Source: a virus
IMG/VR virus record: IMGVR_UViG_3300042446_001683
Length of the DNA: 64,000 nt
Strand: one strand, 5' to 3'
In this document: piece after piece, positions 957 through 10,736 of the stretch
How the letters are laid out: the number at the start of each line of letters is the position of its first letter
Numbering within the stretch: position 1 is the first letter of the stretch
Notes under the pieces: generated by a model
The model's database searches: none
The model's input: only the letters and a program-made list of their open reading frames with translations
Told to the model about the DNA's origin: nothing
Translations under genes and position numbers: made by a program

Positions 957-1000
957 TTTGGCCTTTGGGTAAAGCGATGTTATATTTAGTCATAATTAAA
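957..1000 (+). promoter_or_regulatory. early promoter, Bacteroidota sigma-A type (TTTG-N20-TATATTTA), first of about 17 near-consensus copies
   Basis: TTTG at 957, 1287, 1588, 2184, 2498, 2744, 3384, 4794, 5718, 8404, 8636, 10239, 32559, 48329, 49676, 50908, 53996, each followed 20 nt later (19 at 48329) by TATATT(T/C/A)A. Confidence 0.9.
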
Positions 1001-1012
1001 AAATATAAACAT

Positions 1013-1219
1013 ATGGAAAAGAAACAAACAGCGGTTGAATGGTTAGAAGAACAAAGACTTCAAGGTGCAAACCTTGATATTGTAATAGAACAAGCCAAGC
1101 AAATGGAGAAGGAGCAGATTGAAATGGCTTACAAAGAAGGTAATCATTCGGAAATGAGAGGTGGTAAAGTCATTTTTGAAAAAATGGAATCATACTACAA
1201 CGAAACTTACGGAGGTTAA
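1013..1219 (+). CDS. small hypothetical early protein (KQTAVEWL...AKQMEKEQI type)
   Basis: ATG after promoter and A-rich leader; the upstream extension is the promoter repeat. Confidence 0.75.
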   Translation: MEKKQTAVEWLEEQRLQGANLDIVIEQAKQMEKEQIEMAYKEGNHSEMRGGKVIFEKMESYYNETYGG

Positions 1220-1225
1220 TACCCA

Positions 1226-1274
1226 GCCATGTGTGTGTTTTTACAAGTAGGGGCCCAAAGGGGCCCCATCTTGT
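1226..1274 (+). repeat. intergenic cassette copy 2
   Basis: GCCATGTGTGTGTTTTT then ACAAG..GGGGCCC AAAG GGGCCCC..CTTGT. Confidence 0.7.
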
Positions 1275-1341
1275 TGTGTACCATTGTTTGGCTTTGTGGG
1301 TAATATTTATTATATTTAGGTATAATTAAAAATATAATATT

Positions 1342-1572
1342 ATGGAAAGATTAGAAATGTTAAGAGAAATGTTTAGTAAGTGTGGGGATGGTATTTTTGT
1401 AATGAGGATGGATAATAATGATAGATTTAGAATTTGTAGGGTTGATGGGAGAGTGAATTGGGTTAAGTGTAAAAAAATATTAAATGATAATAATATAAGT
1501 TTTATAGAAGGCCATGATGGGTATGGAATGATGATGGGTAGATGTATTGATTTTGATTTTAAAGGGGTTTAA
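1342..1572 (+). CDS. hypothetical early protein
   Basis: ORF directly behind promoter at 1287. Confidence 0.7.
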   Translation: MERLEMLREMFSKCGDGIFVMRMDNNDRFRICRVDGRVNWVKCKKILNDNNISFIEGHDGYGMMMGRCIDFDFKGV

Positions 1573-1640
1573 CCCCTTACACCTTTGTTTGGCTTAGCCG
1601 AACATGGATGTTATATTTATGTATAATTAAAAACACGAAT

Positions 1641-1907
1641 ATGAAAAATTTCAGAGAAGAACAAATTAACTCAACTTCAGAGTATTGTATTAACCAATAT
1701 TGGGAGAAGGAGACAAAAGTAGATGGTGTGAACATTACTTTTCATTATTGGATGAGAAAGGAAGGATGTAAAGGTTTTACAGGTGAAGAACGAATTATGA
1801 AGGTAGTAGGAGTTAAGGATGGTAAAAAGAGAATGGTTAGAAGTGTTTGGACAATTAATTTAGGAGAAGAACATTGTATTAAGGACATTATAAATAAATT
1901 TAAATAA
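1641..1907 (+). CDS. hypothetical early protein
   Basis: ATG behind promoter at 1588. Confidence 0.7.
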   Translation: MKNFREEQINSTSEYCINQYWEKETKVDGVNITFHYWMRKEGCKGFTGEERIMKVVGVKDGKKRMVRSVWTINLGEEHCIKDIINKFK

Positions 1908-1908
1908 G

Positions 1909-2178
1909 ATGGATTACGATAAACACACAAACGAAGTATTAGAGCGTTTACAGGCGCATCAGATCCTAGAAATACTAGCCACGGCTAACAAATCGATAGA
2001 ACAAGCGCTGAAGCAAATACAGGAACTAGAACATAATTCGATGATGTTCCTAGACATGAGACCAACTAGGGAGATCATGGACGACATCAACGCCTTGCAC
2101 TTGCACCTACACTTCCTACAGTCGGCTAAAAATTTCGCCAAGAACGAGGTACAGGAAATAGGGTTTTACCTTAACTAA
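1909..2178 (+). CDS. hypothetical coiled-coil protein
   Basis: abuts the upstream gene; helical heptads. Confidence 0.6.
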   Translation: MDYDKHTNEVLERLQAHQILEILATANKSIEQALKQIQELEHNSMMFLDMRPTREIMDDINALHLHLHFLQSAKNFAKNEVQEIGFYLN

Positions 2179-2240
2179 ACATGTTTGGTTATTGGGTAAG
2201 GTGATGTTATATTCATATATAATTAAAAAACAGATATAAT

Positions 2241-2480
2241 ATGAAAATTTACCTATTGAAAATTTGGCAGTACGATTCATCAAGTTTTGACTTGAACAAT
2301 GTAACCTGTTTAGCTTTTAAATCAAGAGATTTAGCTGAAAGGGAAATGGTTAAACATAATTTTGAAATAGCAATTGAAAATGGGGATGTAGATGAAAATG
2401 AAGGGTATGACAATTGGGAAATGATTGATTATGATAGTACCTCTTATGAAATTGAGGAATTAGAGGTAATTGAGGATTAA
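2241..2480 (+). CDS. acidic hypothetical early protein
   Basis: behind promoter at 2184. Confidence 0.7.
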   Translation: MKIYLLKIWQYDSSSFDLNNVTCLAFKSRDLAEREMVKHNFEIAIENGDVDENEGYDNWEMIDYDSTSYEIEELEVIED

Positions 2481-2553
2481 ACCTCTCTTACCATTTGTTT
2501 GGCCTAACGGGACATGGATGTTATATTCAGACATAATTAAAAAACATAAACAC

Positions 2554-2736
2554 ATGAAGACATTTAAGGTAGAAGAAACAGTTTTGAAAACAGTTAAACG
2601 AGTTTATTTTGTGGATGCTGAGGATGAGGAAGCAGCAGTTCACCGAGTGATGAGTCATCAGAAGGACGTTGATGAGGAGGATGAGGTGGATGAAGAAGTA
2701 ATTGATTATGAGGTAAAGAAATACAAATTTAAATAA
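2554..2736 (+). CDS. acidic hypothetical early protein
   Basis: ATG behind promoter at 2498. Confidence 0.7.
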   Translation: MKTFKVEETVLKTVKRVYFVDAEDEEAAVHRVMSHQKDVDEEDEVDEEVIDYEVKKYKFK

Positions 2737-2798
2737 TCTTAAGTTTGGCTCTCGGAGGACAGGACATTATATTTAGATCAATAATAAAAACAGATAAC

Positions 2799-3317
2799 AT
2801 GAAGACAGTATTAGAACAATTAATGGAGTTAAAAGATAAGATTAGCGCAATCGAAATTGCAGTGTGTGGTGACACCACCTGCGAGGATGCAGCTTGTGGA
2901 TGTGGATGTGATGAATCACCTGTGGAAGTGGAAGACGAAGGTCCTGAGTTTGATAGCGCTGGTTTCAGTAAAGAGGACCGAGTTGTGGATGGCCAGTACA
3001 TGGTAACAGAGGATAATAAGTACGTGGGACATGTTCACCTTACCAGAGCAGAAATGATCGACTTCGCCACTAGATTGACAGAACGAGTACTTGATTCAGT
3101 TAAGAAAGCGGTTACCGATATGGAATTAAACGCGGATGACGTGGTTGAAATAGAGTTAAATAGCTGGAGTAAAACAATTGAGGTGGAGTTAGACAATAAT
3201 ACACTTGCTAATAATGTTAATAGTGAGATTGAGGATGCGATTAATTTGGATCCGGATTCGATAAGTGATGAGATAGATGATATTTTTGGGGACATGTACC
3301 TAGAGAGGATCAGTTAA
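2799..3317 (+). CDS. highly acidic hypothetical protein with short Cys cluster
   Basis: ATG behind promoter at 2744; CGDTTCEDAACGCGC. Confidence 0.7.
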   Translation: MKTVLEQLMELKDKISAIEIAVCGDTTCEDAACGCGCDESPVEVEDEGPEFDSAGFSKEDRVVDGQYMVTEDNKYVGHVHLTRAEMIDFATRLTERVLDSVKKAVTDMELNADDVVEIELNSWSKTIEVELDNNTLANNVNSEIEDAINLDPDSISDEIDDIFGDMYLERIS

Positions 3318-3323
3318 GTAGTT

Positions 3324-3374
3324 CATGTGTGTTTTTAATTATATAGGATGTGGGCCCCATAGGGGCCCTTTTCC
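3324..3374 (+). repeat. intergenic cassette copy 3
   Basis: CATGTGTGTTTTT then GGGCCCC ATA GGGGCCC, then GTACC and promoter. Confidence 0.7.
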
Positions 3375-3437
3375 GTACCTAGGTTTGGCCTCTGGTGAGG
3401 GTGATGTTATATTTAGTCATAATTAAATAACACGAAC

Positions 3438-3701
3438 ATGAACAAAACAGAATCAAGAAAAGCGCTTAACAAGCTAGTATTTGAAATGGTAACAGGATTA
3501 GGTTACGAGGTAGTAGATGATGGAGACGGAGGACGAGTAACGTTTATCAAACCTGATTATAAAAATTATCATGACAGTATTGAGTATCACAAATCACGTT
3601 TTGACGTTTGCGTTTTAAATGACGCTAGTGATAAAGTTAAGGAGGATGGTGAGACAATTGAGTGGTTTATTAATATACAAAGAAAAGCATTAGACATATG
3701 A
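3438..3701 (+). CDS. hypothetical early protein
   Basis: behind promoter at 3384. Confidence 0.7.
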   Translation: MNKTESRKALNKLVFEMVTGLGYEVVDDGDGGRVTFIKPDYKNYHDSIEYHKSRFDVCVLNDASDKVKEDGETIEWFINIQRKALDI

Positions 3702-3943
3702 GTAAATTTAGAGCAACACAAAACGAATACCATAACGGGTTCCATATGACATTCAAAAATGGATACACTATAAGTGTCCAATTTAGTAAAACCAATTACT
3801 CAGACGGTGGTGAGACCACAGCTGAAATTGCAGCATGGGGTCCAGATAGGAAATGGGTGAAACTGAGCGAACATGATGATGTTCGTGGATGGTGTTCACC
3901 GGACGATGTACTCGAGGTTATGAATCAAATAGCAAATAAATAA
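3698..3943 (+). CDS. conserved phage hypothetical protein (FxNGYTISV...AEIA type)
   Basis: ATGA overlap with the upstream gene; familiar phage motif. Confidence 0.7.
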   Translation: MSKFRATQNEYHNGFHMTFKNGYTISVQFSKTNYSDGGETTAEIAAWGPDRKWVKLSEHDDVRGWCSPDDVLEVMNQIANK

Positions 3944-3944
3944 A

Positions 3945-4136
3945 ATGGCAAATAACAACACATCAAACGGAATCGGATTTGGAACAGTATTATTCCTAGT
4001 GTTCCTAGTACTTAAATTAACAGGTAACATCGACTGGAGCTGGTGGTGGGTGACTAGTCCATTATGGATACCGCTAGCGCTTATAGTAGTTATAGGTGGA
4101 ATTGGAGCACTAATATTAATAAGCCGAAACAAATGA
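3945..4136 (+). CDS. small two-TM membrane protein (LKLxGxIDWSWWWV family)
   Basis: two hydrophobic helices around the WSWWWV motif. Confidence 0.75.
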   Translation: MANNNTSNGIGFGTVLFLVFLVLKLTGNIDWSWWWVTSPLWIPLALIVVIGGIGALILISRNK

Positions 4137-4681
4137 AACGCCTAGTAATACACCCGACAGACGAGTCTACAGACTTCCTAGCGCCGATATACAACCGCTT
4201 ACCAGACGTCACACTAGTGACTACAGGATGTAGCCGCCTAGATATCATGGATATGATAGACGAGCACGACCAGGTGATCATGTTAGGCCATGGAACGCCA
4301 GGTGGACTGCTGAACGTATCTGGATTCAGAACAGGTATGTACATTGTGGATTCACTGGTAGCGGAAGCGTTAGCGCACAAGGACAACAGCATATTCATCT
4401 GGTGCAACGCCGACCAGTTCGTCCATCGCTACAATCTCAAGGGCATGTACTCCGGAATGTTCATCAGTGAGGTAGCGGAAGCGTCTTACTTCAAGATACT
4501 GACCGACCAGGATACGGTAGACAGATCCAATGATACGTTCGCACAGTTGCTGGGAGAGCGATTACTGGTGTCAGACGCTCTGGAGGATATCCATGCTAGT
4601 GTGGGACAGCAGTACCAGTTGCTAGCGGAGACAAACGACATCGCCAAATACAATAGCGACAGATGGTACGTTTCCTTATAG
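4133..4681 (+). CDS. putative caspase/CHAT-fold cysteine peptidase
   Basis: VIMLGHG and IFIWCNAD give a His-Gly / Cys dyad after beta strands; ATGA overlap start. Confidence 0.5.
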   Translation: MKRLVIHPTDESTDFLAPIYNRLPDVTLVTTGCSRLDIMDMIDEHDQVIMLGHGTPGGLLNVSGFRTGMYIVDSLVAEALAHKDNSIFIWCNADQFVHRYNLKGMYSGMFISEVAEASYFKILTDQDTVDRSNDTFAQLLGERLLVSDALEDIHASVGQQYQLLAETNDIAKYNSDRWYVSL

Positions 4682-4836
4682 TAGCGCTCATGCTAGCGGG
4701 ATGTTCCCCGACGACAACAGACATATATTGGGTGAGCCAGTATGGTGAGACGGTTCCGATCGTGATAACAGATACAACACTTGTGGACACTTGTTTGGCT
4801 CCGCGCCCAGGTGATGTTATATTTAGGTATAATTAA
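4663..4836 (+). CDS. small lipoprotein (57 aa, not in ORF track)
   Basis: MVRFLIVALMLAGC signal with LAGC lipobox. Confidence 0.5.
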   Translation: MVRFLIVALMLAGCSPTTTDIYWVSQYGETVPIVITDTTLVDTCLAPRPGDVIFRYN

Positions 4837-4849
4837 AAACAGATATAAC

Positions 4850-5107
4850 ATGAAATTTAGATCAGACAATGAAGCCCCAGTTACAGCAACTGAAGTAGCA
4901 ATCGAAAACATTTTAGTAAACAACGGTTACGATGTTAGTGATATCCAATTCCGTATATTCAAAGACAACGAACGTTATTTGAGAATCGGTTACTGGCAAC
5001 GCTTAAACGAAGACATTAGAGCGCAGTTATCAGGTCTGGTAGTATCTGAGTTTGATATGTACGATGACGATTGTGGTTACTTATTCAGTTACGAAATTAA
5101 ACACTAA
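4850..5107 (+). CDS. hypothetical early protein
   Basis: ATG behind promoter at 4794. Confidence 0.7.
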   Translation: MKFRSDNEAPVTATEVAIENILVNNGYDVSDIQFRIFKDNERYLRIGYWQRLNEDIRAQLSGLVVSEFDMYDDDCGYLFSYEIKH

Positions 5108-5121
5108 TAAAACATACGAAC

Positions 5122-5301
5122 ATGAAACGATTTCAAATTAAATACACTGGTGAGACAATGGACAAGTTCCCCGAAACCAGATACTGCAACTGCCCAGCAA
5201 CAGCAGACGCATATGAGGTACTAGACTGGAATGGTGCTAGCCGAATAGTAGGTACAATTGACATGTGTGAAGCATTCGTACGCTCATATTTCCAACAATG
5301 A
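5122..5301 (+). CDS. hypothetical protein (59 aa, not in ORF track)
   Basis: MKRFQIKYTG...SYFQQ, A-rich leader. Confidence 0.55.
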   Translation: MKRFQIKYTGETMDKFPETRYCNCPATADAYEVLDWNGASRIVGTIDMCEAFVRSYFQQ

Positions 5302-5462
5302 TGACAACGATGAGCTACAACGCCGCACTAGTGATGATGGAGGTCCATCGCCAGCAAGTGCCACATGGTGAACTGTCACCTAACCTAGTGAAGACGATCG
5401 CCGATGAAATTCATGTGTCGCTGACTAGTGAAGAGGTGGTTTACATTTCTGACCACGCTTGA
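5298..5462 (+). CDS. hypothetical protein (54 aa, not in ORF track)
   Basis: ATGA overlap; MMTTMSYNAALV...ISDHA. Confidence 0.45.
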   Translation: MMTTMSYNAALVMMEVHRQQVPHGELSPNLVKTIADEIHVSLTSEEVVYISDHA

Positions 5463-5767
5463 TCCTCCTGTGTCGCGGGAGTGCGCGTGTACACGGTATG
5501 TACATATACAGTACAACGTAAGCGCTACCATGCGCGTTGATATCCATATACCCGGTAGTCCTGAAACTCCTGGGAATGGATTAACCTTCAGATCATAAAC
5601 GATCTTTACGCGCCGATTTGTATATACATATATATTACCCACAACCACACCCCAATTTCCAAACTAACTCCTTCAATCAAAAATCGCAAGAAATGAAAAA
5701 ACTCCTTTAACAAAAAGTTTGGCATCGAGTGAGTATATACGTATATTCATATATAAAATAAAAACAT

Positions 5768-6025
5768 ATGATTTCATCAAGAGCAATTAGAAAAGGCATT
5801 ACTATCAAATTTGATGGTAAGGTAGTAGACAAAGCAGTGGTAGTAGAAGCGAGTAAAACATGGGAACCTAAGCACGCAACGCTGTTCACGAAGTTGCTAA
5901 AGCAGGGTGGTAAATTCACTGCTAACGGCGTTATAGTCGAAGTAATACCACAGGAACAAATGTTAACTTCACGAGGTGAAAAAGATGGTGGCATCATCAC
6001 TTCAGATCCTTTAGCACGATTTTAA
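5768..6025 (+). CDS. hypothetical early protein
   Basis: behind promoter at 5718. Confidence 0.7.
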   Translation: MISSRAIRKGITIKFDGKVVDKAVVVEASKTWEPKHATLFTKLLKQGGKFTANGVIVEVIPQEQMLTSRGEKDGGIITSDPLARF

Positions 6026-6036
6026 ACTAAATAATT

Positions 6037-6240
6037 ATGGAAGCAAAAGAAAAAGCAGAACAGTTAGTAAACAAAATGTTCAATTGGATAGCAGGTGGAA
6101 GCGTAATAGAATATGAAATGGCTAAAGAATGCGCTTTGATAGCAGTAGATGAGATATTAAAAGTAGCGTCATTTTACAATGATTCACAAGCCGAAGTAAC
6201 TTATTGGAACGAAGTAAAACAAGAAATTGAAAATCTTTAA
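6037..6240 (+). CDS. small hypothetical protein (AKECALIAVDEIL...YWNEVKQEI type)
   Basis: motif familiar from Bacteroidota phage small proteins. Confidence 0.75.
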   Translation: MEAKEKAEQLVNKMFNWIAGGSVIEYEMAKECALIAVDEILKVASFYNDSQAEVTYWNEVKQEIENL

Positions 6241-6243
6241 ATT

Positions 6244-6417
6244 ATGGAAGGTAAGTATGTAATCATAGATCTAAGAAATATGGATTTTATGAAGGATGAA
6301 AATGGTACTATAAAATACTATGATACCGAAGAAAAAGCAAGTCTTATATGTGGTATACATGAGCTTGAGAACGCTTGGGTAATGAAATTAATTTATAATC
6401 ATATAGAAGCACAATGA
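6244..6417 (+). CDS. hypothetical protein (57 aa, not in ORF track)
   Basis: MEGKYVIID...HIEAQ; tight operon spacing. Confidence 0.6.
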   Translation: MEGKYVIIDLRNMDFMKDENGTIKYYDTEEKASLICGIHELENAWVMKLIYNHIEAQ

Positions 6418-6557
6418 TGGATCAAATAGGTTATGGTATATTGTTTGCCTTACTAGGACTAGCAATAGCGTTTATAGTATATATTGGGGTATGGATGCCT
6501 AAAGATAAAATGAAGGGCCACGCCGGTAGAGGCAAATGTAAATGTTGTAAAGATTAA
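6414..6557 (+). CDS. small membrane protein with Cys-rich tail (47 aa)
   Basis: one TM helix then KCKCCKD; ATGA overlap. Confidence 0.55.
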   Translation: MMDQIGYGILFALLGLAIAFIVYIGVWMPKDKMKGHAGRGKCKCCKD

Positions 6558-6561
6558 AAAA

Positions 6562-6772
6562 TTAGCCCCGCTCGCGAGGGGATCGTAAAACACAGTAAGC
6601 CTCTGACATAAGCTCAAGTAACTGTTCTCATCGTATAGGAGATAGAGTTAGCCTTCTCGACGTCGTTTAAAAAGGCAACTATTAGTAAACTTTAGTACCC
6701 GTACTGAGGACGTAGGGCTAAGTAAGATACAATTCCGTCCCGCAGGGAGTAGAATGCTAAAGAACTGATAGT
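6562..6772 (+). ncRNA. candidate structured non-coding RNA
   Basis: ORF-free gap with several nested complementary segments (see findings). Confidence 0.5.
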
Positions 6773-6777
6773 AATAT

Positions 6778-6883
6778 AGTCAGGTGGCGTTTTGGAAAGC
6801 GCGGCACCTTCCAGGGTTGAGATTAACAGCTAATGGCACTCAAAATGATAAAGCTGAAGCAGGTTCGATTCCTGTCCTGACTA
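6778..6883 (+). ncRNA. tRNA-like RNA with expanded, non-canonical anticodon domain
   Basis: acceptor AGTCAGG/CCTGACT, D-stem GCG/CGC, T-arm GCAGG-TTCGATT-CCTGT. Confidence 0.7.
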
Positions 6884-6897
6884 CTAAAATTAAAATT

Positions 6898-7140
6898 ATG
6901 GCAAAATTAACAATAGAATTTGACCTCGTTGAGGAAGCAGAAGGAATACACTCTGCACTATACGGATACAAGTATAGAAGTTTACTTTGGGAACTAGACC
7001 AAAAACTACGTAGTGTCCACAAATACGGAAGTGCGTTACAAGGTCAAGGTGAAGCAACATCTGAAGAAATGGATGTATGTTACCGTCTAAGAGACGTTAT
7101 TAGAGAAATGCTACAAGAAGATAACTTAACAATAGAATAA
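6898..7140 (+). CDS. hypothetical protein
   Basis: true ATG lies after the tRNA-like element. Confidence 0.7.
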   Translation: MAKLTIEFDLVEEAEGIHSALYGYKYRSLLWELDQKLRSVHKYGSALQGQGEATSEEMDVCYRLRDVIREMLQEDNLTIE

Positions 7141-7141
7141 T

Positions 7142-7312
7142 ATGATTTCAATTATTGGATGGGCCTTACTAACAGGCCTACACACTCTCAACATTCGTTT
7201 ACACAAAGATGAACAAAAAGGATTTTGGTATAAAACATCTTGGTTTTTCTTAGGTTGGTCATCACTATCACTTTTATATGCTATTGGCGATGCTATTATA
7301 GCTAGCCTATAA
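7142..7312 (+). CDS. small membrane protein (56 aa, not in ORF track)
   Basis: MISIIGWALL...AIIASL, two hydrophobic stretches. Confidence 0.5.
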   Translation: MISIIGWALLTGLHTLNIRLHKDEQKGFWYKTSWFFLGWSSLSLLYAIGDAIIASL

Positions 7313-7339
7313 ATCGTATATACGTATTAAAGTGCAATA

Positions 7340-7375
7340 AGATGGGGTCCACGCATGGACCTCTCTTACTTTTTT
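7340..7375 (+). terminator. intrinsic terminator
   Basis: GGGGTCCA-CGCA-TGGACCTC hairpin then T-rich tail. Confidence 0.6.
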
Positions 7376-7377
7376 AA

Positions 7378-7385
7378 TATTTATA
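7378..7385 (+). promoter_or_regulatory. putative late promoter TATTTATA (representative copy)
   Basis: found shortly before starts at 447, 7378, 9870, 10784, 13278, 16663, 19288, 27227, 36557, 37152, 43020, 46770, 53265, 55382, 57510, 59432; one-mismatch copies at 32543 and 39723. Confidence 0.75.
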
Positions 7386-7388
7386 ACC

Positions 7389-8351
7389 ATGATTAAACTC
7401 ACTGACTTACTTAAAGAATTAGACCTACGTAGTGGAGACCTAGATGATAATATCACCCTAGAACAGGTATTAATAGCATTTTTAGAAGACTTTCAAATAC
7501 CTGAAGATGAATTCTTTACTGTAAGTAGAGGTAAGTTTAACTCTGAGGACTTTGATCTAAAACCTGGTGCTACATTCAATCCTAAGATACTTAAGAAAAC
7601 AACTCTTATATCTGATGGTGATTATGAGTTTATAGTCCCTTCTACTTACCGTGGTACTTTATATTTAGTAAATACTAAAGGTACTACTTTAGATGATTAT
7701 GTTATAGGGCAAGTAGAGGTAGAAAAAATATATATCAACGCGAATTCCGGGCGTACTAAGCCATATCGCATACCTGGTGCAGAGATACATTTAACATATG
7801 TTAGCCCGAAGTACCGCGGCAAAGGACTAGGCGTTAAGATGTATACTATGTTATTAGAAGCATATAAAACAATTTTCTCAGATAACATCTTATATCCTGG
7901 TAGCTGGAAGTTATGGATTAGTAAATTGGCTCCTATAGGTTTAAAACAAGGTAACTTTATTGGAGGTGAAGTAGGAGGAATTATTGTTCCGTTTACTCCT
8001 GAAGATATAAGTGATGCTAGTTTGATGGAAGGTATAGGAGTAGACCACTTAATACTATCTACTGAACCGCCTCAAGTATTACTCGACATTAAACAAGCAT
8101 TATCAGGTTTATCTCTATCTAAAGGGGATTATGGTATCTATGAAATGAGAACTTCAAATCTTAAAGTAACTCAATTAGATGAAATTGTTGACCAAGTTGG
8201 TTCGATTGAAGAAGTAATTGAAGAAGCTGGTTTAATACAAGTAGTTGGATTAAATGATGATGATAACTACCCAGCTATAGTAGTAGCGACTCAGGACGCT
8301 TTAGCGGTGATTCGCGAGGTAGGTGACGATGTTACTCTAGAAATCGTCTAA
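7389..8351 (+). CDS. GNAT-family acetyltransferase with MIKLTDLLKE leader
   Basis: YVSPKYRGKGLG acetyl-CoA motif A; SD...W downstream. Confidence 0.7.
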   Translation: MIKLTDLLKELDLRSGDLDDNITLEQVLIAFLEDFQIPEDEFFTVSRGKFNSEDFDLKPGATFNPKILKKTTLISDGDYEFIVPSTYRGTLYLVNTKGTTLDDYVIGQVEVEKIYINANSGRTKPYRIPGAEIHLTYVSPKYRGKGLGVKMYTMLLEAYKTIFSDNILYPGSWKLWISKLAPIGLKQGNFIGGEVGGIIVPFTPEDISDASLMEGIGVDHLILSTEPPQVLLDIKQALSGLSLSKGDYGIYEMRTSNLKVTQLDEIVDQVGSIEEVIEEAGLIQVVGLNDDDNYPAIVVATQDALAVIREVGDDVTLEIV

Positions 8352-8461
8352 TCCATTAATTTTCAACGTTCTAGTACCTTCTTGTAACCTTTCCGGGTGA
8401 GTGTTTGGCTTCCTGGTGAATGGATGTTATATTTAATATATAATAATTAATAATAACGACT

Positions 8462-8632
8462 ATGAACACAACAGTAATTGCAATTTTGATTTTGACAGCA
8501 GTAATCGCTCGAGTAATCGCGAATAAAAAGGCTGAAGTTAAACCAACAGCTAAACAGGAACTAGTTAGTTTTTTAGGTAATGTGACTGTTAATTTTGCGT
8601 TTTATATCGCTTTAACAATCATCTTTGGTTAA
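8462..8632 (+). CDS. small two-TM membrane protein (56 aa, not in ORF track)
   Basis: behind promoter at 8404; MNTTVIAILILTAVIA...FYIALTIIFG. Confidence 0.65.
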   Translation: MNTTVIAILILTAVIARVIANKKAEVKPTAKQELVSFLGNVTVNFAFYIALTIIFG

Positions 8633-8695
8633 GAGTTTGGCTCACCAGGATAAGGATATTATATTTAGGTATAATTAAAAACACAAATAAAGGTT

Positions 8696-8992
8696 ATGGA
8701 AAAAAGAAGAGGTCGCCCACCCGGGACAAAGAAACAAGAAGTTAAATTAGAAGTAAGCACAGCTGAACCTAAAAAAAGAGGCCGTAAGGCAGTTCAAAAG
8801 ATATTTATTGTACCTACAATTGATGCCTTAGAAGGTGAATTTGAAGGTTCAACATCTGAGAAGTTAAAGATATATGCGGACCAGGCAGTTCTTTTAGCTC
8901 AGGATATAGATAAGGATCCATGGAGAATGGATTATAGAGAAAAATACAGAAACACAATCAGTCGTATGTGTTCACTAATTCAAGAATTATAA
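8696..8992 (+). CDS. AT-hook-like DNA-binding protein
   Basis: KRRGRPPG and KKRGRK. Confidence 0.55.
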   Translation: MEKRRGRPPGTKKQEVKLEVSTAEPKKRGRKAVQKIFIVPTIDALEGEFEGSTSEKLKIYADQAVLLAQDIDKDPWRMDYREKYRNTISRMCSLIQEL

Positions 8993-9014
8993 ATAAAATA
9001 AATAAATAAAGGTT

Positions 9015-9818
9015 ATGCCACTAGATTTAAACAACAACACGTTTTTAACTGCTTCTGAAATTAGAGAGAAAGCAAGTTCAATTTTCACAACTACAAGTGC
9101 TCCAGGTACTAGTCAAAAGTACTCACACATTTCAACTAAACAGATCATTGATGATATGGAAGAATTAGGATGGGGTGTGGTGGATGCTAAACAAGTACGC
9201 GCCCGTAAAGGTGAAGGTTTTCAAAAACACTTAGTAGTGTTCCGTAACAATGATTTGTTCATTGAGGGTGCTGATGGTGATAATGTGTTTCCACAAATTC
9301 TATTAACTAATAGTCATGATGGTAAAAATGCGTTTACATTCACAGCTGGTTTGTTCCGAATGGTTTGTGAGAATGGTTTAGTAATTTCAACTCAAGAGTT
9401 TGAAAATATGAAGATTCGCCACTACGGATATGATTTTAATGAGTTACAAACTGTTATTAATACAATGGTAGGAGCGTTACCGTTAGCAGTTGAGTCAATG
9501 AATCGTTTCAAACAAACACAACTAGCTCAAGAACAAATTTTAGAGTTTGCTCGTAAAGCGGTTCAAGTACGTTTTGGTGAGGAACATGCGCAAAACATTG
9601 CAATTGATTATAACGCCTTAACCACAGCTACTAGACCTGAAGATCGTGGTACTGATTTGTGGAGTGTGTTTAATGTGATTCAAGAGAAAATTACTCAAGG
9701 TATGTTTGAGTACCAGTCAGGAGCTAAAGTAAGAAAAGCTCGTAAGATTAAGAACTTCAGACAAGACTTAGATTTGAATGCTAAGTTGTATGAGTTGGCA
9801 GCTGAGTTTGCTGCTTAA
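9015..9818 (+). CDS. DUF932/DUF945-family protein
   Basis: LLTNSHDG...AGLFRMVCENGL signature. Confidence 0.8.
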   Translation: MPLDLNNNTFLTASEIREKASSIFTTTSAPGTSQKYSHISTKQIIDDMEELGWGVVDAKQVRARKGEGFQKHLVVFRNNDLFIEGADGDNVFPQILLTNSHDGKNAFTFTAGLFRMVCENGLVISTQEFENMKIRHYGYDFNELQTVINTMVGALPLAVESMNRFKQTQLAQEQILEFARKAVQVRFGEEHAQNIAIDYNALTTATRPEDRGTDLWSVFNVIQEKITQGMFEYQSGAKVRKARKIKNFRQDLDLNAKLYELAAEFAA

Positions 9819-9840
9819 ACAGTTAGTGGTTGAGTATTAA

Positions 9841-9866
9841 GAAGGGAGCGAAAGCTCCTTTCTCTG
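9841..9866 (+). terminator. intrinsic terminator
   Basis: GAAGGGAGC-GAAA-GCTCCTTTC. Confidence 0.7.
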
Positions 9867-9899
9867 TTGTATTTATAATAAACACTTAAACACACAACT

Positions 9900-10175
9900 A
9901 TGATGAATTTTAAACAATGGGTCATCGATTTATTTAAAGATGAACGTGGCTCAACTTCAGTTAAACCGGTAATCGCATTACTTGGTGCTTTATTTTTAAG
10001 TACAACTATGACTATTAACTCATTTTCTCATGCTGATTTCTCACCAGCTGATAATTTAGTTGACGCTGTATTAATTATAACAGCTATAGGTATGGGTGCT
10101 GATACATTGGATAAGTTCTCTTCTCCACGTAAAAAAACGGAAAATACCAACAATACCGGTGAGGATAATATCTAA
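9900..10175 (+). CDS. two-TM membrane protein, possible holin
   Basis: two TM helices, charged C-terminus, late-type promoter at 9870. Confidence 0.5.
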   Translation: MMNFKQWVIDLFKDERGSTSVKPVIALLGALFLSTTMTINSFSHADFSPADNLVDAVLIITAIGMGADTLDKFSSPRKKTENTNNTGEDNI

Positions 10176-10200
10176 TATATAAAAATATAGATAGTCGTTT

Positions 10201-10227
10201 AAAGCCGGGTTAAGCCCGGCTTTTTTT
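10201..10227 (+). terminator. intrinsic terminator
   Basis: AAAGCCGGG-TTAAG-CCCGGCTTTTTTT. Confidence 0.85.
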
Positions 10228-10282
10228 ATTAATAAGAGTTTGGCTCCCCAATAGATGGATATTATATTCATCATATATAAAA

Positions 10283-10354
10283 GCTTCTTAAGCATAAAAG
10301 GTGATGCACCTGATTTGTACTCAGGATAAGTGGGTTCGATTCCTACAAGAAGCT
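10283..10354 (+). tRNA. trnT: tRNA-Thr(TGT)
   Basis: GCTTCTT/AAGAAGC acceptor, GCAT/ATGC D-stem, CCTGA-TTTGTAC-TCAGG anticodon arm, GTGGG-TTCGATT-CCTAC T-arm. Confidence 0.85.
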
Positions 10355-10358
10355 CTAC

Positions 10359-10499
10359 ACTCAAGTGGCGAAAGGATCAGGAGGCCCTGGTCGATGGTAG
10401 ACGCGACGTATGGTTATAACAACGTGGGTAAAAAATCATCTGAACAAGATGTGGTCATTATAATGGCAGCTCGTGCAGGTTCGATTCCTGCCTTGAGTA
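10359..10499 (+). ncRNA. tRNA-like RNA (Leu-type D-arm) with D-loop insertion and replaced anticodon domain
   Basis: ACTCAAG/CTTGAGT acceptor, TGGCG...GGTAGACGC, GCAGG-TTCGATT-CCTGC. Confidence 0.7.
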
Positions 10500-10504
10500 C
10501 AATA

Positions 10505-10578
10505 GCGCCCTTAGCTCATTCGGTTAGAGCAACTGACTCATAATCAGTAGGTACCTGGTTCGACCCCAGGAGGGCGCA
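10505..10578 (+). tRNA. tRNA with CAT anticodon, probably Ile2 (lysidine-modified) rather than Met
   Basis: GCGCCCT/AGGGCGC acceptor, ACTGA-CTCATAA-TCAGT; body resembles Ile2 tRNAs. Confidence 0.85.
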
Positions 10579-10592
10579 CTAAATTTTTTATT

Positions 10593-10736
10593 ATGATTTT
10601 ATTAACAGTTATTTTACTTATTGAAACAGTTTTATCAATTACTTATCTCTATACTATAAGTAAACGAGTAGAACAATTAGAGAACGAAATAAGTGAGTTA
10701 AAAACTCGACATATCAAACAACTATTAAAGGGTTGA
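10593..10736 (+). CDS. small TM plus coiled-coil protein (47 aa, not in ORF track)
   Basis: MILLTVILLIETVLSITYLY then heptads. Confidence 0.55.
   Translation: MILLTVILLIETVLSITYLYTISKRVEQLENEISELKTRHIKQLLKG

Follow-up and report, generated by a model that had tools for sequence, protein, structure and literature searches.

Genomic context of element B

The window analysed here is the complete stretch of 64,000 nt taken from the virus record IMGVR_UViG_3300042446_001683. It is an AT-rich (approximately 30% G+C), myovirus-like contig of a lake phage, in which terminase, portal and baseplate genes are present. On its plus strand an RNA gene of 141 nt, designated element B, is located between two tRNA genes. 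The features of this locus are as follows.

10201–10223, plus strand: intrinsic terminator of the upstream gene, with a G+C-rich stem of 10 bp and a T run behind it
10239–10270, plus strand: putative early promoter of the tRNA-Thr/element B/tRNA-Met operon, in which 20 nt of spacer separate a −33 box from a −7 box
10283–10355, plus strand: tRNA-Thr, anticodon TGT (ARAGORN; Rfam tRNA model 58.7 bits)
10359–10499, plus strand: element B, a 141-nt tRNA-Leu-framed RNA gene with no encoded CCA, defined by its sequence and 14 distinct homologues
10505–10579, plus strand: tRNA with CAT anticodon (Met, or Ile2 if modified; ARAGORN; Rfam tRNA model 68.2 bits)

Element B is separated from tRNA-Thr by 3 nt and from tRNA-Met by 5 nt. 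A position between two genuine tRNAs had already been proposed in the first-pass annotation, which was made from the sequence without database searches, and it was corroborated by ARAGORN and the Rfam tRNA model, both of which call the tRNA-Thr and the CAT tRNA on either side. The promoter-like motif upstream of tRNA-Thr is present in 22 copies in the window compared with 2.3 expected, at sites from 957 to 10270 and later. Twelve of the 22 copies are located on the plus strand within the first 10.3 kb, the early region, and the motif occurs about once per early gene. The copy at 10239–10270, which ends 12 nt 5′ of tRNA-Thr, may act as a promoter. Since it follows just after the terminator and precedes tRNA-Thr by this short distance, the genes for tRNA-Thr, element B and tRNA-Met look like one early transcription unit, which the terminator would isolate from the 91-aa ORF upstream. 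The promoter type hints at a host from the Bacteroidota.

Proteins encoded near the element or its relatives comprise a DUF932 protein, a GNAT, a thymidylate synthase and a DUF559 endonuclease; among the neighbouring proteins no RNA enzyme or partner protein was consistently linked to the element. In a cultured-phage database the region was matched by ordinary tRNAs only and no annotated relative was found. Two further observations concern the surroundings of the CAT-anticodon tRNA at 10505–10579. This tRNA could be tRNA-Ile2 (with lysidine) instead of tRNA-Met, and AUA accounts for 47% of the Ile codons in the late genes of the window. On its 3′ side, the region 10584–10736 contains a short ORF and a weak stem-loop.

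Collection of homologues and conservation

For the comparison of related loci, 50 related viral contigs were fetched via the neighbouring DUF932 protein and more were added by three pattern scans. In the scan with the 5′ 16-mer of the element about 75 of the 90 matches were chance matches in coding DNA, while the remainder gave the alleles described below. A long-gap scan of viral contigs for the frame pattern mainly returned adjacent pairs of ordinary tRNAs and was set aside, and a second anchor scan for further 141-nt variants revealed nothing new. Cellular copies of the frame were not found by a pattern scan of 185,579 species genomes, which returned four chance matches in coding DNA.

Element B is 92–96% identical to its counterparts in 11 relatives, compared with 83–90% identity at third codon positions in the gene next to it. 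Being more conserved than these third codon positions, it is under purifying selection, and it represents a conserved, selected and structured RNA gene. All 141-nt versions belong to one shallow clade. The fold of the element was tested on an alignment of 14 distinct versions with lengths of 141 or 142 nt.

The tRNA frame of element B

Element B has an intact acceptor stem, D stem and T arm together with the discriminator base; its D-loop contains an additional hairpin, and its anticodon and variable parts are remodelled. The parts of the frame are located as follows.

10359–10365, plus strand: 5′ strand of the acceptor stem, pairing with 10492–10498; discriminator A at 10499
10368–10404, plus strand: D arm with a 3-bp D stem (10368–10370 with 10402–10404; element positions 10–12 with 44–46) and an enlarged D-loop keeping A14, A15, G18 and G19
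10375–10392, plus strand: additional D-loop hairpin of 7 bp with a 4-nt loop (element positions 17–23 with 28–34)
10475–10491, plus strand: T arm of 5 bp with a 7-nt loop containing U54, U55, C56, R57 and A58 (element positions 117–133)

The acceptor stem (element positions 1–7 with 134–140) consists of seven Watson-Crick pairs in element B and is completely paired in all 14 sequences, with pair 1-72 being A-U in eight of them and G-U in six. It is directly followed by a linker of two bases and a Leu-type D-arm start, and the D-arm sequence is close to its counterpart in the canonical tRNA-Leu(TAA) of L033, one of the relatives. The helices of the acceptor and the T arm are paired in 100% of the alignment cells. 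For the D-loop hairpin this value is 98% in the 14-sequence alignment, with changes from U-G to U-A and from G-C to G-U, and in L267, a partial copy at a contig end, one A-U pair of this hairpin is changed to G-C. The variation of the homologues at T-loop positions 57, 59 and 60 follows that of real tRNAs. Four copies of the T-loop 11-mer are present in the window, where 0.25 would be expected, and one of these belongs to copy A, the tRNA-framed RNA described further below.

The nucleotides U8, A14, A15, G18, G19, U48, U54-U55-C56, A58 and A73 are invariant in the set of 141-nt sequences and in the four alleles found at this position in related phages. The determinants of bacterial leucyl-tRNA synthetase (LeuRS) are A73 and the core formed by U8-A14, A15-U48, G18-U55 and G19-C56, and the anticodon arm is dispensable for charging (PMC2377443). 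All nucleotides of this set are present in element B, with their pairing in three dimensions being predicted. A leucine anticodon (NAG or NAA) is not present in the element, whose anticodon-like loop shows UAU.

Structure of the central region

Between the D arm and the T arm the revised fold comprises the following parts.

10406–10425, plus strand: anticodon-like arm of 6 bp with a bulged A (element positions 48–51 and 53–54 with 62–67; A52 bulged); its 7-nt loop at 10413–10419 would present UAU
10426–10472, plus strand: variable arm of 47 nt forming a three-way junction
10426–10429 with 10469–10472: base helix of the variable arm (element positions 68–71 with 111–114)
10436–10452: hairpin V2 (element positions 78–83 with 89–94); pair 79-93 is C-G, U-G or U-A
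10454–10467: hairpin V3 (element positions 96–98 with 107–109); changes from U-G to U-A and from C-G to U-G
10458–10464 with 10413–10419: putative contact between the V3 loop and the anticodon-like loop (element positions 55–61 with 100–106)

In the alignment 99% of the cells are in standard pairs, compared with 26–47% when the partners were slid by 1–3 columns. Two-sided changes were observed in four pairs, namely 69-113 (G-C, A-U and G-U), 79-93 (C-G, U-G and U-A), 78-94 and 61-100, and there are many G-U pairs, which are compatible with an RNA of the plus strand only. Pair 69-113 of the base helix is G-C in 10 sequences, A-U in three and G-U in one. The anticodon-like arm is paired in 100% of the cells with a single change from U-A to U-G, and its loop, which contains U33, A37 and A38 together with a G at position 32, is invariant in 13 of the 14 sequences.

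All seven pairs of the putative loop-loop contact can be formed in each of the 14 sequences. In L020 both partners of one of these pairs are changed, from A-U to G-C, which represents a single compensatory event. Both loop segments contain palindromic A/U hexamers (element positions 56–61 and 100–105), and the two hexamers are better regarded as the loops of two local hairpins, which may kiss.

The acceptor, the D-arm start, the D-loop hairpin, the T arm, the small hairpin (element positions 79–83 with 89–93) and the two hexamers had all been placed correctly by the first-pass annotation. Its nested "branched anticodon region" had to be abandoned: the long-range helix of this region conflicts with the covarying base helix 68–71/111–114, and the predicted energy of that model is −30.1 kcal/mol, about 8 kcal/mol worse than the −37.9 to −38.9 kcal/mol of the revised nested model. 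On account of this covariation and of the energy, two hairpins with a loop-loop contact are preferred to a nested central helix.

A small ORF of 17 codons inside the element (element positions 52–105) was rejected as a coding sequence, as L020 has a 1-nt insertion that shifts its frame. When antisense targets within the window were sought for the centres of copy A and element B, the longest matches had 11–12 nt, which is no better than in shuffled sequences (10–15 nt).

Alleles at the same position and related tRNA frames

In related phages the same frame holds unrelated centres. At one syntenic slot four unrelated centres, giving alleles of 100, 110, 141 and 163 nt, were found on the same acceptor and D stem, and the other alleles are always located just upstream of a tRNA-Cys and/or a CAT tRNA. 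The D-loop hairpin is common to the alleles of 100, 141 and 163 nt. Four bases cap the "anticodon" stem in the 100-nt allele, which also has an ordinary short variable hairpin. The 163-nt allele forms a long branched rod in which no anticodon arm can be recognised, and the 110-nt allele has another D-loop hairpin, another T stem, two small hairpins and a 4-nt loop. Among the four slot alleles, the 7-nt anticodon-like loop is confined to the 141-nt allele. When the four alleles are aligned with the canonical tRNA-Leu(TAA) from a more distant relative, the nucleotides U8, G9, A14, A15, G18, U48 and A73, the D stem and the core of the T-loop are invariant.

Side observations were made at loci with the 163-nt allele. 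GOLLD RNA (RF02032, 260–266 bits) is encoded on the minus strand at L233:1985–2401 and L256:837–1251, directly upstream of the tRNA island with this allele. A framed RNA of copy-A type (about 100 nt) lies at L233:1630–1717 on the minus strand between a tRNA-Glu and the 163-nt allele, and after it a non-coding gap of about 210 nt without any assignment follows (L233:1417–1628).

A second, much larger family with a tRNA frame is represented in the window by copy A:

6778–6883, plus strand: copy A, 106 nt

Copy A reaches 32.7 bits with the Rfam tRNA model in sensitive mode. A scan with its 3′ 23-mer detected at least 160 sites in at least 120 contigs (loci L274–L353, e.g. L284, L298 and L319) and thereby at least 143 distinct sequences, with lengths of 65–182 nt among the matches listed. 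Among these listed matches, the acceptor is fully paired at 148 of 160 sites, the D arm is of Leu type in about half, and up to seven copies of the frame are found per contig within 5 kb. Some members reach 39–41 bits with the Rfam tRNA model. The centres are hypervariable; no shared motif or k-mer was detected among 75 of them. In L319 (reverse complement, 1217–1287) a canonical 71-nt tRNA-Lys(TTT), whose acceptor and T arm are exactly those of the copy-A frame, adjoins three non-decoding members with this frame. Because the copy-A frame holds a canonical tRNA there, the frames are derived from real phage tRNAs. The region 6450–6777 of the window, immediately upstream of copy A, is ORF-free and relatively G+C-rich; no Rfam family was detected in it at E-values up to 1, and it may represent either another structured RNA or a leader.

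A third frame with another acceptor stem exists in versions of 95, 116, 120 and 121 nt, among others in L030 (5909–6024), L399, L400, L403 and L410. Three further unrelated hairpins were found here at the same site in the D-loop. The anticodon-like stems of this frame covary and carry 6-nt or 8-nt loops, and two members have a T-loop without the usual U55 and C56.

The earlier proposal that a family of RNAs uses the tRNA frame as a scaffold for variable RNA domains was thus extended to four centres at the slot, at least 143 centres of the copy-A family and four in the third frame. Judged from these sequences, element B is part of a large family, not yet annotated, whose members place many different inserts in one tRNA frame.

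Tests of the identity of element B

ARAGORN called nothing between the tRNA-Thr and the CAT tRNA, and the Rfam tRNA model gave no hit on 10359–10499 with permissive filters and E-values up to 10. The latter model also matched no allele of element B in 20 related loci. Standard searches for tRNAs and RNA families therefore miss the element entirely, which constitutes an annotation blind spot. Among the features of a canonical tRNA, a 7-bp acceptor with discriminator and a T arm with U54-U55-C56-R57-A58 are present in element B. A 5-bp anticodon stem with a 7-nt loop kept in the orthologues is not, as its stem has 6 bp with a bulge, the slot alleles have 4-nt loops or no such arm, and the third frame has 6-nt or 8-nt loops.

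A tmRNA is characterised by an alanine-type acceptor with G3-U70 and a conserved tag reading frame. This identity was rejected for element B, in which pair 3-70 is U-A and the 17-codon frame is shifted in L020; no tmRNA was called by ARAGORN. A YrlA or Y RNA-like identity, which would call for a score above the threshold of the family with the Ro-binding helix included, was likewise dismissed, the sole match being a partial one over the T arm with 20.1 bits compared with a threshold of 69 bits. In its intron mode ARAGORN returned a different isotype and a different intron for each relative, and these calls were regarded as forced fits.

Comparison with known RNAs

RNAs of tRNA clusters without an explained role have been known in phage T4 since the 1970s. 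The closest known analogue of element B is T4 species 1 RNA (rnaC), together with species 2 RNA (rnaD). The former is a stable, expressed RNA of the T4 tRNA cluster whose role is still not explained (PMC3014915, PMC9697503). With about 139 nt, rnaC is similar in length to element B; it likewise lies in the tRNA cluster of a myophage directly after a tRNA, and it ends with a canonical T arm and, next to this, an acceptor-like strand paired with the 5′ end. The combination typical of rnaC, i.e. an RNA of about 140 nt in a phage tRNA cluster with an acceptor-like helix next to a T arm, is found in element B as well. However, rnaC is without a D arm and has only five of seven acceptor pairs, whereas in element B the Leu-type D arm is complete and its loop bears the additional hairpin, and element B occurs as an allelic series. 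No homology to rnaC or rnaD was detected when a profile of element B was compared with the T4 tRNA region by nhmmer at E-values up to 10.

With bacterial class II tRNA-Leu, e.g. tRNA-Leu(UAA), the element shares the acceptor, the D stem, G18 and G19, A15-U48, the T loop, A73 and the tRNA spacing; it differs in the 18-nt D-loop hairpin, the bulged 6-bp anticodon stem, the UAU and the branched variable arm of 47 nt. Allo-tRNAs, tRNA-Sec and tRNA-Pyl also deviate from the 7/5 cloverleaf; their variable arms are long, and they come from metagenomic finds (PMC5389517, PMC7609411), but they have kept a decoding anticodon arm. Neither a hairpin inside the D-loop nor a branched variable arm is described in a review of non-canonical tRNAs.

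An engineered counterpart is the tRNA scaffold, in which the acceptor, T and D arms are retained, the anticodon arm is replaced by an insert and the product is processed and stable in E. coli (PMC3753655). These "tRNA scaffold" fusions (Ponchon and Dardel; PMC3753655) resemble element B in exchanging the anticodon arm for a structured insert, and they rest on recognition by tRNA enzymes and resistance to decay. Element B differs from them in being natural and multi-copy and in having an additional D-loop arm. The tRNA-like domain of tmRNA similarly sets an acceptor and a T arm around a large non-tRNA body, but element B has a full D stem, no G3-U70 and no tag frame that is kept among the relatives. 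GOLLD and ROOL are large structured RNAs beside phage tRNA genes whose role is likewise not explained, and GOLLD sits near phage tRNA islands (bioRxiv 10.1101/2024.12.08.627333). In sequence and size they are unrelated to element B, and none was detected in the window by the Rfam search.

Discussion

Element B is probably unable to read codons. It is not regarded as a decoder because the 7-nt loop occurs in the 141-nt allele only, the 6-bp stem is bulged and this loop and the V3 loop are complementary to each other; moreover, its relatives at the slot share the acceptor and D stem but carry unrelated centres without a 7-nt loop, so that a non-decoding RNA is most likely. The explanation favoured here, which is considered fairly probable, regards element B as the gene of a stable RNA that does not decode and is built on a class II (leucine-type) tRNA frame.

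Several other explanations were weighed against the same data. If element B were a tRNA-Leu gene with intervening sequences that are removed to yield an ordinary tRNA, the resemblance of its D arm, after subtraction of the 18-nt hairpin, to that of the canonical tRNA-Leu of L033 would be accounted for. In Rfam, however, no intron or ribozyme family was matched at E-values up to 10, the insertions of 18 and about 35 nt are far below the size of self-splicing (group I) introns, no bulge-helix-bulge motif is visible, and in-silico removal of the insertions leaves UAU, which is not a leucine anticodon. The mutually inconsistent intron calls of ARAGORN among the relatives and the canonical tRNA-Leu(TAA) that a relative bearing element B already has elsewhere also argue against it. 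This explanation is therefore considered highly improbable; splicing is unlikely, and the distinction drawn in the first-pass annotation between an RNA with a tRNA frame and an intron-bearing tRNA-Leu stands in favour of the former. Only slightly more credit is given to a decaying tRNA pseudogene or a recombination scar without a function of its own. Phage tRNA islands are recombination hot spots, the centres look as if swapped at the boundaries of the frame, and endonuclease-like genes are present in some islands. Element B is, however, better conserved than the synonymous sites of the adjacent gene, four helices show covariation, and in the sister family the acceptor is intact at 148 of 160 sites among the matches listed; such a remnant is therefore considered very unlikely.

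Both remaining alternatives assign a function to element B. One of them is a working oversized elongator tRNA, the UAU of which reads the abundant AUA (or a near-cognate codon), which is charged by IleRS or LeuRS and whose additional arms either do not interfere or act as identity elements. The 7-nt loop with U33, a purine at 37 and A38, which is the same in 13 of the 14 versions, the presence of C4-G69 and A73, a tRNA island that otherwise serves A-ending codons (Thr TGT) and the codon use of the phage (AUA 38.6 and UUA 61.4 per 1000) are consistent with it. Against it stand the bulged stem of 6 bp, the G at position 32, the complete complementarity of the loop to the V3 loop, where the sole change in the loop is compensated, and the corresponding loops of the slot alleles and sister frames, which have 4, 6 or 8 nt or are absent. 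A Leu-type body with A73 would furthermore put leucine at an Ile codon, and both ARAGORN and the Rfam tRNA model reject the element. Decoding by the 141-nt allele is thus rated as quite unlikely, and it is retained because of U33, A37 and A38 in the loop and the frequent AUA. A little more weight is given to a decoy or sponge in an arms race, in which the tRNA-Leu-like upper half titrates a host factor directed at tRNAs or sensing them, for example a tRNA-cleaving or tRNA-modifying defence toxin, or the synthetase itself, while the centre is unrecognised and thus free to vary. A constant frame with a replaceable centre, the early promoter motif upstream of element B and the up to seven copies per contig of the sister frame (among the matches listed), which would raise the dose, fit such a role. 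It is still held to be unlikely: the helices of the centre are under selection, which is needless for an irrelevant spacer, no defence system with such a target was identified, and the centres were not minimised by deletion but range from 65 to 182 nt among the matches listed.

For the favoured stable, non-decoding RNA the following course is proposed. Element B would be transcribed together with tRNA-Thr and tRNA-Met from the early phage promoter and would be excised by the tRNA enzymes of the host, with RNase P acting at the 5′ end, followed by trimming of the 3′ end and addition of CCA. Excision by tRNA-processing enzymes is proposed since the element keeps the minihelix of acceptor and T arm as well as the tRNA spacing. 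The product would take on an L-shape and escape decay as the engineered fusions do. It would then act via its tRNA-like upper half and elbow without reading codons, with the D-loop hairpin and the variable centre as add-on surfaces. As the upper half keeps the LeuRS nucleotides and the anticodon arm is not needed by LeuRS, the RNA may be bound or charged by this enzyme, or it may occupy another protein that reads the tRNA shape. The size of the D-loop presumably matters for LeuRS in E. coli, so that the insertion in the D-loop could block charging. In this sense we infer that the element may be a mimic with a binding partner. The benefit could come either from the frame, acting as a sponge or decoy, or from the inserts, as displayed domains or as cargo on a scaffold.

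A wider idea is put forward tentatively, as a possibility of clearly lower confidence. Lake phages may encode a class of "cargo tRNAs", i.e. Leu-type frames, recognised and perhaps charged in the manner of tRNA-Leu but non-decoding, each of which shows a different structured domain, in some cases along with an additional arm in the D-loop, in arrays of up to seven per genome in tRNA islands, some of them with GOLLD. The variable domains would be the functional and fast-evolving part, for instance protein-binding modules against host defences or modules for the loading of RNA cages, and element B would be a module with an internal loop-loop lock.

The natural frame keeps exactly those parts that are needed by the processing enzymes and by LeuRS, which is the same design as that used for engineered RNA production in bacteria. 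With the natural set of variants it can be asked what the frame recruits and what the inserts are for, and also whether the body of a tRNA tolerates an arm in the D-loop together with a branched variable arm. Element B shows the idea of a tRNA-cluster RNA as known from T4 to be general and modular, with one frame being reused in nature with many inserts.
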